Counted from the stretch's first letter, positions 39,953-61,353 are shown. The stretch is DNA of 64,000 bases from Candidatus Gastranaerophilales bacterium (GCA_045598245.1 JAZLLQ010000011.1:38687-102686); one strand, 5' to 3'. The notes: generated by a model not told the origin, from the sequence alone. Translations and numbers: made by a program.

Positions 39953-41011
39953 ATGTTAACTATAAATACAAATTACACACTGAAACCGTATGATTGCAAC
40001 CCGATAAATAACCATCAACAAACAAACAAAGTCACATATATGCAGCCTGACAGCGTGTCTTTTTCAGGATTTAAAGAAAAAAAATATATAGAAAATACGG
40101 CAAAAAAAAACCCACTTTTAAAAATATATTTGGATGATATTTCCCGCTATCCTACACTTGATAAAAAACAAACCACCGAGTTGTTTAAAAAAATGGAAAA
40201 GGGAGGAAAAGAAAGTGAAGAAGCGAGAGAAAAACTTATTCAGGCAAATCTGAGATTAGTTTTATTTACAATAATGAAATATTGCCATAACACACCACTA
40301 CCTATTATGGACTGTATTCAGTACGGTAATATCGGACTTATAAACGCAGTAGATAAATTTGATTATAAAAAAAACGGTACATTTTCATCTTATGCAGTTG
40401 AAAATATAAAATATAAAATTTACAGTTCAGCATATGAGCAAGCAAAAGTTATTCGTATTCCCAAAAACAGAATTGCACAGATTAATGCTCTAAAAAAAGC
40501 TGAAGAAAGGTTTACTCAAGTACTCAATAGGTTTCCTTCCGACAAAGAATTAGCAAAATATCTCGGAATTAATGTTTATGAGGTAAAGAGCTTAAAGCAT
40601 TTTGATGCTTCCTCAGATTTTGAGAATCTTGAATCCGTTGTCTATGATAGGAGCAAAGACGGATATTCACATCAAACAAGAGCAAATTTCGATACAACAA
40701 GCGAAGAATTATATTTAAAGAGAGATGCAATGCAGGGCGAAAGTGAACAAGATTTTTATGAAAATCTGGAACAACGTGATATAAAAAGAGATATCAGAGC
40801 CGCAATAAAAACATTAAAAGGTGATGAAAAACTTGTTATGGAAAAATGGTTGAAAATATGCGATACGGTGCCTGATACTCTGTCCGAAATAGGAAGGCTT
40901 ATGGGAAAAACAAGGATGAGAATCTGGTACATTGACCGAGCAGCCTTTCACAAGCTGAGAAGTCCCAAAGTTATGAAGTATTTAGGCGAACACAGTAATC
41001 GTTTCGAATAA
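39953..41011 (+). CDS. Divergent RpoD-like sigma-70 protein with low-complexity N-terminal extension
   Basis: Regions 1.2 (KIYLDDISRYPTL), 2 (REKLIQANLRLV, GNIGLINAVDKFD), 3 (IRIP, PSDKELA), 4 (TLSEIG..TRMRI..KLR). Confidence 0.85.
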   Translation: MLTINTNYTLKPYDCNPINNHQQTNKVTYMQPDSVSFSGFKEKKYIENTAKKNPLLKIYLDDISRYPTLDKKQTTELFKKMEKGGKESEEAREKLIQANLRLVLFTIMKYCHNTPLPIMDCIQYGNIGLINAVDKFDYKKNGTFSSYAVENIKYKIYSSAYEQAKVIRIPKNRIAQINALKKAEERFTQVLNRFPSDKELAKYLGINVYEVKSLKHFDASSDFENLESVVYDRSKDGYSHQTRANFDTTSEELYLKRDAMQGESEQDFYENLEQRDIKRDIRAAIKTLKGDEKLVMEKWLKICDTVPDTLSEIGRLMGKTRMRIWYIDRAAFHKLRSPKVMKYLGEHSNRFE

Positions 41012-41033
41012 TTTCATCACTATCAGAATACGT

Positions 41034-58215: not shown

Positions 58216-61200
58216 ATGCTTATTAATTCTGTAAATAACTCAAATATAAAAAATGATTTCCAAATGCGGCAATTGCAAAAAACGCATGCGCAATTTTCGA
58301 TGCATAAGTCTTTGTCCGATATTATGTATCAAAAAGACAGTGTAAATTTTAATCATTCATTAAATAATATTTCTTTTGGCGGAATTTTAGGCGGAATAAA
58401 AAATTTATTTTCCGGTAAAAAAGACAAAGACGGTATTGCTATTCTTCCGCCAATAACAGAAAGAAAAGCAGAAAAACAAAAACAAAGACAGGTTAAAAAT
58501 AATGTAAAAGAATTAAAAAAGTTAATAAGCAATTCTCATTGCACACAAGAATTAGCTGAGCAAATATGGGATAATGTAACCGAAGATAATGTTGAATTAG
58601 CTGTATTATTATTTAAAAAGTACGGTTATTGGAATTCATCCTATTTACCGGATGTTCTAAAAAACGCAAATGCAGTTAACCTGAATTTGGCTAAAAAATT
58701 ATCAAACGATGCGGATTTGTATGATATTAGCCGTTTTTTATTCAGAGCAACAGAAAAAACGACAAAATACCTTGAATACGTATATGACAATAAGCCGCAT
58801 TTAAGAAAATATTTCCATGATATATCATGGTGTTTTAGCGAAAATCAGGATGACAGAGATTTTAATTTTGAGTTTGTTAAAAAGGTTATTGATTTTTCCG
58901 AAAAAATAATCAACAAAAAAGCTGCCCCTGAGATATCTATAAAAATATGGGGCGAAGAAATGCCGGTACAACGTAAAAAACCTGATTTAACCATTATAGG
59001 AAACGTATCCCCTTCTAATATAGATTTTGCAAAAGAGCTTTGGAAAGTCGGAGATTATGCTGACGGAGTGATATTAAATATTATTGCATTAACGGACAGA
59101 AGTAATTTGGATGAAGCCAAAACCATTTTGGAAAGAATAAAAAAAGGTGAAATTGAAGAAAGAATGCTCATGCCATTTCTCAAGAAAACCATTGATTATA
59201 AAAATTACAAAATGCTTCAGCACAGAATTGGCAGAAATAATGTAAAAAAATTGCAAAGCGAAGATTTGGCAATCGCCTGCAAGATACCTATGCTTGCAGG
59301 CATAAAAAATATAAATGAAGTACGATTAGCAGACAAAAGAAAACTTCTTAAAAATCTTATGCAGTCAGTTCACGGGAAATACAGAATAAGCAGTGAATTA
59401 AAACAGTACTTTCCTCTTGCCCCGACAAATACAAGAGAGTATTGTAAAATTTTACCGTCAATTATATCTTCTCTCGGTATTCAAACAAGAAAATTATTTC
59501 CTAATGAAATTAATGAATTTAATCAAACAATAAATGAATTAGGACAAATATTGGCAAGTCTGCCTGTAGAGGAATTTGCAAATCTTAGAATTACTCAGGA
59601 TTTTTCAAAAGAAGATTTTATAAGGGAAGTTCTTTCAAGAATTAGCATATTACCTAATTCAGAACGTCAAAAAATCTATGATTATTTCGGTTTTGAGATA
59701 CATCATGACAAAAATACAAAGTCAGGATATTCTATCATCGGCTATCCTCTTAACAGTAAAAATGAAGAGAAGCTCTCTCTTATCAAAAATGAGGATACAA
59801 GATGCATTTTGGAAGAAGTAAGACCGCTTGTTGTTAGATTTTCAGAAAATAATCATATAAATGTAAATAACCCGCAAGTAGAAGTTTTATTAAATAAAAT
59901 CATTGAAGTTTTACCCGAATTACGTACCACTATAGGCAGAATACAGCACGGAACGCACGAATTTGATGTTATGCAGCATTCTTTAAAGGTTATGCAAAAA
60001 ATATCACAATCAGCTGAATTTGATACTTTAAACGAAAGTGATAAAAAAATAATCCTTCTTTCCTCGTTGCTTCATGACATTACCAAAACAGAAGCTGCAA
60101 AAGATAAAGAGCATGCTGAAAACAGCAGTTTTGATGCATTTTATATATCCAAGAAATTTAATCTTTCAAAAGAAGAAGAAATGAAATTATACAAACTTAT
60201 AAAACACCATGAATGGCTTGGATATGCGAATACTGCTTCATCCAAGAAACATCTGGAAAAACGCTTGCAGTCAATTGCTTTTGATTTACAACAGGATAAT
60301 TTATTCTATATGTCACTTCTATTCACTCATGCAGACTTACTTGCAGTAAAAGCAGACGAAAGTTTTCATGAAGATACAAGCGGAGATTACCGTATTTGTC
60401 CTGATAAAATAAGACGAAGTTATGGGTTAGCTGCTGATTTTTATGGTTATAAAATTGACGAATATATAGATAAATTAAAAGCCACACAACCAATTTTACC
60501 TGTAACAAAATTCCCAACTGCTGATGCCATAAGAGCAAAAATTACGGAAATACACCCTGACAATAGTACAAATATCAAAGGTGTTTACATAAACAATGAA
60601 GGATTAGTTGTCATTAAATATAATGAAGTGGAAAATTGGGAAGATTTAGGTTTTCCGAAAGGCAGTATTTCAAAAGGAATATCCGCAGTCGGTAAAGTTG
60701 CTCATCATCACAGAACAAAAGATGTTGACACAGGGAACATAAAATTCTTTGTTCACGGCTTAGATTATGAAAATCAACTTGCAAAATTTGATGCCTTTTC
60801 TTTGATTGATTCTGATGCATTATTATCTGTCAGTTATGCCGAGCGACCGGAATCTAAATTCAGATTTTTCAGACCACAAGGTGTTATACTCGATGTTGAT
60901 ACAAATTGCGTATATGGCGGTGGAAGTACGGATAGCGGTTCAGGTTATGCGAAATCAATTTCTACGTTTAAACACCATTATATTTTTGATGGTGAAAGAA
61001 AAGATGACAGAAAATACATTTCGAATTTAATCAAAGAAGCAACAAATATGACAGATAGCGAATACACAATATTCGTCAAAAAGAATAAAAACAAATCCAT
61101 GCTTGAAATAGAACCAAAAGAAATACAGGAAAAACTTATAAAAGCATTCTCTGAAATGAATTCAAGAATAAGACTTTTTGACAGGCAATATAACGAAATG

Positions 61201-61353
61201 TTTGTTTCCAATCCCAGAGTTATGGGGGTGTTTGTGTATGATTATGAAGATAATACCATAGGTAATCCCATACATTATACAAATAATAAATTTACGTTTT
61301 TAAAACAATATGCTCTTGAAAAAAATATACCATTGGTAGTCTTTGGGAATTAA
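58216..61353 (+). CDS. Large hypothetical protein with HD domain and putative ART-like C-terminal domain
   Basis: QHGTHEFDVMQH..LLHDITK..EHAE..HHE..AD (HD); C-terminal FFVHG..LSVS..YNE. Confidence 0.7.
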   Translation: MLINSVNNSNIKNDFQMRQLQKTHAQFSMHKSLSDIMYQKDSVNFNHSLNNISFGGILGGIKNLFSGKKDKDGIAILPPITERKAEKQKQRQVKNNVKELKKLISNSHCTQELAEQIWDNVTEDNVELAVLLFKKYGYWNSSYLPDVLKNANAVNLNLAKKLSNDADLYDISRFLFRATEKTTKYLEYVYDNKPHLRKYFHDISWCFSENQDDRDFNFEFVKKVIDFSEKIINKKAAPEISIKIWGEEMPVQRKKPDLTIIGNVSPSNIDFAKELWKVGDYADGVILNIIALTDRSNLDEAKTILERIKKGEIEERMLMPFLKKTIDYKNYKMLQHRIGRNNVKKLQSEDLAIACKIPMLAGIKNINEVRLADKRKLLKNLMQSVHGKYRISSELKQYFPLAPTNTREYCKILPSIISSLGIQTRKLFPNEINEFNQTINELGQILASLPVEEFANLRITQDFSKEDFIREVLSRISILPNSERQKIYDYFGFEIHHDKNTKSGYSIIGYPLNSKNEEKLSLIKNEDTRCILEEVRPLVVRFSENNHINVNNPQVEVLLNKIIEVLPELRTTIGRIQHGTHEFDVMQHSLKVMQKISQSAEFDTLNESDKKIILLSSLLHDITKTEAAKDKEHAENSSFDAFYISKKFNLSKEEEMKLYKLIKHHEWLGYANTASSKKHLEKRLQSIAFDLQQDNLFYMSLLFTHADLLAVKADESFHEDTSGDYRICPDKIRRSYGLAADFYGYKIDEYIDKLKATQPILPVTKFPTADAIRAKITEIHPDNSTNIKGVYINNEGLVVIKYNEVENWEDLGFPKGSISKGISAVGKVAHHHRTKDVDTGNIKFFVHGLDYENQLAKFDAFSLIDSDALLSVSYAERPESKFRFFRPQGVILDVDTNCVYGGGSTDSGSGYAKSISTFKHHYIFDGERKDDRKYISNLIKEATNMTDSEYTIFVKKNKNKSMLEIEPKEIQEKLIKAFSEMNSRIRLFDRQYNEMFVSNPRVMGVFVYDYEDNTIGNPIHYTNNKFTFLKQYALEKNIPLVVFGN

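Follow-up and report, generated by a model that had tools for sequence, protein, structure and literature searches.

A stretch of 64,000 nucleotides from Candidatus Gastranaerophilales bacterium, a melainabacterium of the gut related to the cyanobacteria (GCA_045598245.1, JAZLLQ010000011.1:38687-102686; called the window below, with positions counted from its first letter) encodes a sigma-70-like, a GNAT-fold and an HD-domain protein, which start at 39953, 44866 and 58216, where an earlier note on this DNA had placed them, and all three carry a two-part N-terminal tag. We confirmed this tag as a genuine label at the N-terminus of about 40 proteins of the 2.06 Mb genome under study (G000), conserved and portable between cargos. 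Tentatively, and with somewhat less than even confidence, we propose that it represents, in conserved form, the bipartite type III export signal of early substrates and is read by a second, filament-less type III export set (set A), part of which lies in the window.

A two-part label at protein N-termini

Enrichment was assessed on a crude list of 1934 open reading frames (ORFs) of G000, each taken from its longest start, and in a second species of the genus (G001, 25 contigs, 87% complete). The regular expression [VILMAT][SNT]F[SGKTNR]G, applied to residues 2-70 of the 1410 ORFs of at least 150 amino acids (aa), was found in 18 proteins of G000, compared with 6.6 +/- 2.6 and a maximum of 15 in 300 shuffles; the excess over shuffled sequence on which the earlier note had made its reading depend was present. 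Internal windows of the same proteins contained the motif in 42 of 5928 cases, which predicts 10.0 N-terminal occurrences, and the reversed motif gave 8. We then built an 11-column matrix from 18 hand-picked seeds among 27 proteins (the other nine were excluded by eye for their likeness to common domain starts, to a signal peptide or to flagellar proteins) and scored the first 60 residues at a threshold of at least 10 bits. The matrix gave 40 N-terminal and 34 other matches in G000, and 12 column-permuted matrices gave 6-19 and 24-49, respectively; inside proteins the motif is therefore no commoner than chance, and at N-termini its enrichment is 2-6 fold. The matches outside the seed regular expression were also N-terminal (39 against 18.9 expected, p=1.3e-6), and the matrix, applied to G001 as it stood, returned 36 matches at N-termini and 22 inside proteins. 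A minority of the matrix matches were false positives on conserved housekeeping proteins, one of them in the window (2552-3676).

The anatomy of the tag was taken from 77 N-terminal matches of the two genomes aligned on their Phe. A first element, M-x-[I/V]-[N/S/Q/K]-x-[I/V/L], is followed by a variable, disordered linker rich in Asn, Ser, Lys and Gln, from 0 to about 60 residues long, and then by a second element, [I/V/L]-[S/N/T]-F-x-[G/A/S], directly before the folded cargo. Relative to the Phe, I, V or L was present at -2 in 50/77, S, N or T at -1 in 70/77 and G at +2 in 56/77, with a hydrophobic preference at -8, -5 and +3 (0.51 at +3). In the shortest tags the two elements abut and read M-x-I-N-S-I-N-N-x-S-F-x-G. 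The start M-x(0-1)-[IV]-[NSTQK] was found in 16/45 long-leader proteins and in 407/3527 others (p=2.8e-5), and I or V occupied residue 3 in 18/39 tagged and 351/1895 other proteins; the two elements are statistically linked.

In eight orthologue pairs of G000 and G001 the motif was kept and the linker had diverged. Two families were followed further, the GNAT-fold family of the window (132 representative homologues at 50% clustering; 110 of its 134 sequences aligned) and the family of the tagged protein C26_16488 (56 homologues; 47 of 57 sequences aligned), with fragments and odd lengths excluded from both alignments. The Phe is invariant in 110/110 members of the GNAT family, where it is one of only three invariant columns and ranges in position from 5 to 72, with S or N at -1 in 89/110 and I or V at residue 3 in 75/110. 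It is likewise invariant in 47/47 members of the C26_16488 family, at residues 24-36, and 44/47 begin with M-x(0-1)-[IVL]. Synonymous codons at the motif follow the usage of the genome, so the constraint lies on the protein, and a constraint at the RNA level was rejected on the same ground. Selection acts on the motif and not on the linker. In AlphaFold2 models the tagged regions are predicted to be disordered, with pLDDT below 50 at residues 1-7 of the GNAT family and 1-37 of the C26_16488 family.

These figures bear on a reading without any common function, in which the motif would reflect the N-terminal codon bias of an AT-rich genome, ordinary first beta-strands at domain starts and the expansion of a few families of paralogues. 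Lys, Asn and Ile are favoured after the start codon in AT-rich genomes, several matrix matches are plainly the domain starts of conserved housekeeping proteins, and the motif abuts the first strand in the GNAT family. Such a bias leaves unaccounted for the 40 N-terminal matches where permuted matrices of the same composition reached 6-19, the Phe that is invariant in both families while its distance from the start varies, the linkage of the two elements and the unrelated cargos (below), and we regard this reading as improbable.

Cargo proteins

When the leader was removed, the 37 tagged proteins fell into 36 similarity groups, so the tag is portable over unrelated cargo, as the earlier note had supposed. 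Pfam families among the cargo were an AAA ATPase, alpha-amylase-like, starch-synthase-like, aminotransferase and multi-helix-turn-helix proteins, and most cargos had no family. Membrane-like segments were present in 7/39 tagged proteins against 590/1934 overall, and a homologue in G001 was found for 13/38 tagged proteins against 1188/1818 overall (p=9e-5), with a median identity of 52% against 71%. The tagged cargo looks like a set of accessory, non-membrane proteins.

The sigma-70-like protein has a leader that scores 22.3 bits under the matrix, with the Phe at residue 37, and a Shine-Dalgarno-like AAGAGGA lies upstream of its ATG. Regions 2, 3 and 4 of the sigma-70 family were above the Pfam cut-off (37.2, 27.0 and 25.4 bits), and the protein is under every NCBIfam equivalog cut-off. 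Among 5.8 billion proteins and 30 related genomes no orthologue with the leader was found, and the closest relatives, 37-38% identical, covered the sigma domains only.

For the GNAT-fold gene we took the ATG at 44866 as the real start, since two homologues begin at the same Met and GAGG precedes it, and an upstream TTG start giving 217 aa was rejected. The motif shared by the three leaders is present in this protein as an F-G-[A/V] variant; the common ending had been rightly recognised before, with the exception that this leader does not have the F-x-G form. The protein had no Pfam or NCBIfam sequence match. Its AlphaFold2 model, built on the 110-sequence alignment, reached a pLDDT of 92.6, and among the matches listed all Foldseek PDB matches were GNAT or GNAT-type acyltransferases, with TM-scores of 0.5-0.6 and 1tiq as the best (E=7.7e-6). 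By its model the product has a GNAT fold and is acetyltransferase-like.

The leader of the HD-domain protein scores 19.4 bits with the Phe at residue 54, and the site was also matched by the short-tag profile described below (E=0.045). The HD domain itself (PF01966) scored 24.0 bits against a Pfam cut-off of 22, and PDB entry 2pq7 was a weak match. The sigma-70, GNAT and HD identities given to the three cargos before our analysis are thus all upheld, by Pfam for two and by model and Foldseek for the GNAT protein, and the suggestion that the HD protein is partly ADP-ribosyltransferase-like is not: sequence searches detected no ADP-ribosyltransferase match in Pfam or NCBIfam (E<=0.01) or among PDB sequences (E<=1). 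Homologues of the HD-domain protein in relatives align from about residue 300 onwards, and the regular expression was found in 0/10 of their loci; those in two relatives (G007 and G021) start with M-I-x-N-I-T-S-Y-N ... F-K-x-A, which is tag-like and is not matched by the regular expression.

Outside the window, the protein C26_16488 (G000:C26:16488-18116, minus strand) has 542 aa and two membrane-like segments. Its model shows an all-alpha fold that matched no PDB entry at E<=0.001 and, in the ESM Atlas, only unnamed Melainabacteria clusters. A conserved tagged protein of 639 aa (G000:C47:9070-10989, plus strand), also with two membrane-like segments, lies about 2.4 kb from the set-A FliMN-FliOPQR operon. 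Both proteins may be substrates with a structural or pore-forming role. Among the tagged cargos there is a single pair of paralogues (G000:C14:28759-29874, plus strand, and C42:47190-48569, minus strand). It has no Pfam match, and both members end in G-G-I-H-C, which recalls the catalytic Cys of arginine-deiminase-type (guanidino-modifying) enzymes.

The leaders have no hydrophobic segment in a 19-residue window (one likely false positive aside), no RR-x-F-L-K and no lipobox Cys. The absence of a Sec signal reported earlier was thereby borne out, and Sec, Tat and lipoprotein signal peptides were rejected for lack of a hydrophobic core, a twin arginine and a lipobox. A double-glycine leader resembles the tag in being an N-terminal label that ends in small residues and differs from it in the pattern of hydrophobic positions, which lie at -2, -5 and -8 from the Phe in the tag; it was rejected, with the C39 peptidase PF03412 found in 0/4 genomes including G000, and found in G001. 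A microcompartment encapsulation peptide and a cargo signal for contractile injection or type VI secretion systems were rejected as well, as the shell protein PF00936 and the sheath protein PF04984 were each found in 0/5 genomes.

Two flagellar-type export sets

G000 holds two complete type III sets, a canonical flagellum (set B) and the filament-less, paralogous set A, which has ring, rod, gate, ATPase and C-ring-like parts; besides the window operon, genes of the two sets lie on contigs C9, C14, C29, C37 and C47. Set B comprises FliPQR-FlhBA on contig C9, FliD, FlgL/K/N, FlgJ/I/H/A, FlgG/F, FlgC and FliE/F/H/I on contig C37, and the flagellins. The flagellar basal-body genes that had been recognised in the window are indeed there and belong to set A, not to the flagellum. 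For each gene of this ring and rod operon there is a paralogue among the flagellar genes of contig C37 (22-59% identity) and an orthologue (61-87% identity) in G001, in which no flagellin was found. Elsewhere in G000, set A includes FliI, a protein like the cytoplasmic domain of FlhA (FlhA-C), FlhA-FliH, a FliG-like protein, FlhB and FliMN-FliO-P-Q-R.

There were 7 flagellin-N matches in G000 and 0 in G001. All 19 of the 19 set-A proteins are kept in G001 at 51-94% identity (94% for set-A FlhA), much better conserved than the average protein between the two genomes. For set B, 12/25 proteins, which are flagellum-specific, had no match in G001, and the other 13 matched only set-A paralogues at 22-50%. 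G001 nevertheless gave 14 matches to the short-tag profile, as many as G000. Therefore, the canonical flagellum is not needed for the tag, and the flagellar route, the first of the options named in the earlier note, cannot be a required one.

Export through the canonical flagellum, as in Campylobacter, would find support in the full flagellar set of G000 with its 7 flagellin-N matches, in FliD, which starts with the motif, and in the high scores of flagellar FlgC and the hook protein. Campylobacter flagellar and non-flagellar substrates have been reported to share an N-terminal export sequence (PMC2764114). The 87% complete G001, with 0 flagellin matches, no match for 12 flagellum-specific proteins and the same number of tags, speaks against it, and the flagellar FlhA class is missing in at least 7 of 31 genomes of the order, two of which (G014 and G029) keep profile matches. 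The canonical flagellum as sole route is therefore disfavoured, and we consider it extremely improbable that the tag serves flagellar export of this kind.

Across the order, FlhA-type (FHIPEP) genes were present in 31/31 genomes; they fall into two full-length classes and a free-standing FlhA-C-like protein. The set-A FlhA paralogue was found in 65/81 genomes of the class at 42-77% identity, with two families having none, and set-A FlhB in 28/31 relatives. In G000 the FlhA-C-only protein (C37:12776-14233, minus strand, about 485 aa) adjoins set-A FliI (C37:14810-16162); nearly all of the 31 genomes searched in the order have it, its counterpart in G001 is 80% identical, and it could be a soluble receptor for substrates.

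Proposed reading of the tag by set A

Early flagellar substrates carry an N-terminal hydrophobic signal and a gate recognition motif, which work best when about 24 residues lie between them (Bryant et al. 2022, PMC8983047). The gate recognition motif docks at the cytoplasmic domain of FlhB, and in Salmonella FlgD the two elements are 2-SIAV-5 and 36-FLTLL-40 with a minimum spacing of 19 residues (PMC8983047). We propose that the tag pairs a hydrophobic signal at the N-terminus with a gate recognition motif centred on the Phe, that the unfolded N-terminus would dock at the export gate of set A and that Sec would have no part in the export of the cargo that follows; its recognition by set A, the export itself and a destination outside the cell are all inferred. 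The tag shares with the known signal its N-terminal place, its disorder, the lack of a chaperone and an apparent lack of cleavage. Small hydrophobic residues occupy positions 3-6 in both, and in long tags the Phe-centred second element lies 20-35 residues downstream (24-36 in the C26_16488 family). The long tags agree with the known spacing, with the Phe at 24-36 in that family, at 37 in the sigma-like protein and at 54 in the HD protein. The known signal is loose (F-x-x-x-hydrophobic), whereas the tag reads [IVL]-[SNT]-F-x-[GAS] and is not enriched for a hydrophobic residue at +4; the known substrates are axial subunits, whereas the tagged cargos are enzymes and DNA-binding proteins.

The axial proteins themselves resemble the tag. 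Set-A FlgC contains ISFSG at the position of the gate recognition motif in early flagellar subunits (9.9 bits, the top 0.3% of Phe sites). Under the tag matrix, 5/11 axial or cap proteins had their best N-terminal Phe site in the top 2% of all Phe sites, namely set-A FlgC, set-A FlgB, flagellar FlgC, the hook protein and FliD, and the flagellins of G000 start with M-x-x-[IV]-N-[TS]-N.

Non-flagellar proteins do pass through flagellum-type gates elsewhere, as proposed here. The Cia and Fsp proteins of Campylobacter jejuni are such a case (PMC2764114). Lysobacter enzymogenes OH11 offers an experimental precedent, a filament-less flagellar type III export system through which non-flagellar toxins leave a cell without flagellin (PMC7688988), a situation like that of G001. 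The Campylobacter and Lysobacter substrates are not known to share a recognisable sequence tag, in which the present case differs; it also differs in that set A is a separate, anciently duplicated system that coexists with a full flagellum in G000 and is not the remnant of a sole flagellum. In a 2026 preprint, most Gastranaerophilales are stated to keep only some flagellar genes, which are "postulated" to act in secretion. Listings and abstract openings of the literature on flagella and secretion in Gastranaerophilales, Melainabacteria and Vampirovibrionia (supplements not covered) contained no description of such a tag.

A more distant parallel is given by the RxLR motif of oomycetes and the PEXEL motif of Plasmodium, short host-targeting motifs of large eukaryotic effector repertoires that follow a Sec signal peptide, PEXEL being a protease site. 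Like them, the tag has few conserved residues at a variable N-terminal distance and occurs on many unrelated, fast-evolving, lineage-specific proteins; unlike them, it has no signal peptide and no known cleavage.

Several results weigh against recognition by set A. Sequence conservation is unusual among type III signals, there is no obvious reason to export a sigma factor or a starch-synthase-like enzyme, and the conserved Gly, Ala or Ser at Phe+2 has no counterpart in the known gate recognition motif. The hydrophobic fraction at Phe+4 (0.36) equals the background, with the enrichment at Phe+3 only mild, and in about half of the 77 tags the Phe is at residue 13 or earlier, far under the 19-residue spacing minimum; the GNAT-fold protein of the window, with the Phe at residue 10, is one of these short cases. 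No leader-bearing orthologues of the sigma-like or HD protein were found, so leader conservation is not demonstrable for these two. There were 0 true tagged ORFs among the 125 ORFs at seven loci flanking set-A FlhA in other genomes. Sigma-28-type promoters (TAAA-N14-16-CCGATA) were not enriched before tagged genes, with 1/39 against 24/1895 in G000 and 0/38 against 26/1632 in G001. No hook, filament, L/P ring or dedicated secretin was found for set A, which leaves its path across the outer membrane unexplained. Finally, the short-tag profile is abundant only in the genus and set A is class-wide, so the tag and the apparatus do not co-vary simply.

The last point rests on a profile that is blind to long, split tags. 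Within the genus it gave 14, 14 and 10 matches in the three genomes; sister genera had 5 and 1, and other families in the order had 0-3, clear copies of the tag among them. Outside the order the numbers were near chance. Among translated profile matches outside G000 and G001, 18/21 lie at the start of a Met-initiated ORF and look true, one of them from another order. As to the co-occurrence with flagellar type III genes for which the earlier note proposed a test, G000 and G001 have both the tag and set A, and across the class set A extends far beyond the recognisable tag.

An explanation by extra secretins was rejected after a search. A complex prediction of the set-A FlhB cytoplasmic domain (2-row alignment) with residues 1-50 of a tagged family (47 rows), run with no controls, gave a score of 0.10 against a mark of 0.32, which counts neither for nor against the proposed reading.

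The same evidence can be read as a label for sorting, docking or processing by something other than a type III system, for instance for recruitment to an intracellular assembly or to the cell pole, for a dedicated protease or unfoldase (as a propeptide or degron) or for an undescribed export route. Conservation, portability and disorder are what any short linear docking motif would show. A peptide-binding partner would suit the conserved sequence, the short tags and the small residue at +2 better than the loose signals of type III substrates do, and cargo such as the sigma-like protein, the AAA ATPase, the aminotransferase and the multi-helix-turn-helix proteins is normally intracellular. That the recognisable tag and set A do not co-vary also agrees with such a label. 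On the other hand, no candidate partner was identified, with microcompartments, C39 transporters (not in G000) and contractile systems missing, and the likeness to the N-termini of axial proteins and flagellins would be left unexplained. We hold this alternative to be somewhat doubtful.

Implications

If recognition by set A is true, the tag would explain why a flagellar-type export core is kept without flagellin in most Gastranaerophilales. Type III signals are hard to recognise from sequence. Were the signal here a conserved tag that can be searched for, it would offer a way into the rules by which the export gate selects its substrates, and everything that this uncultured lineage of the human and animal gut exports would become readable. 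Going further, the substrates of set A might form a sequence-addressed secretome of about 40 proteins per genome that is delivered into another cell (epithelium, protist or bacterium), a proposal that we consider unlikely; such delivery, and any link to predation, are inferred. This secretome would comprise acetyltransferases, arginine-modifying-type enzymes, phosphatase- or protease-like proteins, glycogen enzymes and sigma-like or helix-turn-helix proteins, and the supposedly harmless gut "cyanobacteria" would be effector-injecting organisms. The lineage has been reported in a preprint to be enriched in non-industrialised populations. Should the tag serve another system, about 2% of the proteome would still carry a sorting label that has not been described before.

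Features of the window and neighbouring genes

The coordinates of the tagged genes, their tags and the set-A operon in the window are given in Table 1.

Table 1. Tagged genes and set-A genes in the window (positions counted from its first letter).
Feature	Position	Strand	Description
Set-A ring and rod operon	24290..29599	-	Pfam assignments; candidate reader of the tag
Set-A FliF	24290-25948	-	
Set-A FliE	26000-26329	-	
Set-A lytic transglycosylase	26343-26966	-	
Set-A FlgC	27350-27796	-	
ISFSG in set-A FlgC	27638..27652	-	residues 49-53; conserved in G001
Set-A FlgB	27807-28154	-	
Two set-A FlgF/G-like genes	28170-28883 and 28901-29599	-	
Sigma-70-like cargo 1	39953..41011	+	352 aa, divergent sigma-70 family
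Tag of sigma-70-like protein	39953..40069	+	residues 1-39: MLTINTNY, polar linker, VSFSG (residues 35-39)
GNAT-fold cargo 2	44237..44866	-	209 aa from the ATG at 44866
Tag of GNAT-fold protein	44831..44866	-	residues 1-12: MNIRFSKINFGV, F-G-[A/V] variant, Phe at residue 10
HD-domain cargo 3	58216..61353	+	1045 aa, HD phosphohydrolase domain at residues 586-665; remainder unassigned
Tag of HD-domain protein	58216..58383	+	residues 1-56: MLINSVNN, linker with a weaker SVNF copy, ISFGG (residues 52-56)

Sigma-28-type promoters precede flagellins, a "MEINKI-x-F" family and giant proteins, and the window contains 4 such sites against 0.52 expected. A near-consensus one, TAAAGTTT-N11-GCCGATA, lies at 62301-62326 on the plus strand, about 85 bases before the ATG at 62411, which opens a giant repeat protein of 4696 aa that extends past the end of the window. 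Genes of a family starting with M-E-I-[NSD]-K-[ILV]-x-[FY] follow sigma-28-type promoters in G000 (C1:29858, C20:63909, C30:710 and C41:70180) and also in G001, which has no flagellum (C1:9573, C18:115666, C21:11961 and C24:141852); their products are possible late-type substrates of set A.

On the plus strand, 42427-43209 encodes a sigma factor of 260 aa that has regions 2, 3 and 4 and is 82% identical in G001; it may be a sigma-28-like factor that has survived together with the second export set. By eye only, the gene directly downstream is prepilin peptidase-like. At 53463-53807 on the minus strand, an acidic ORF of 114 aa has the look of a FlgM-type anti-sigma factor, again by eye only, with no Pfam FlgM match and no homologue in G001. 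Between the tagged sigma-like gene and the gene of the 260-aa sigma factor lies an untagged patatin-like phospholipase of 392 aa (41034-42212, minus strand), which is 55% identical in G001.

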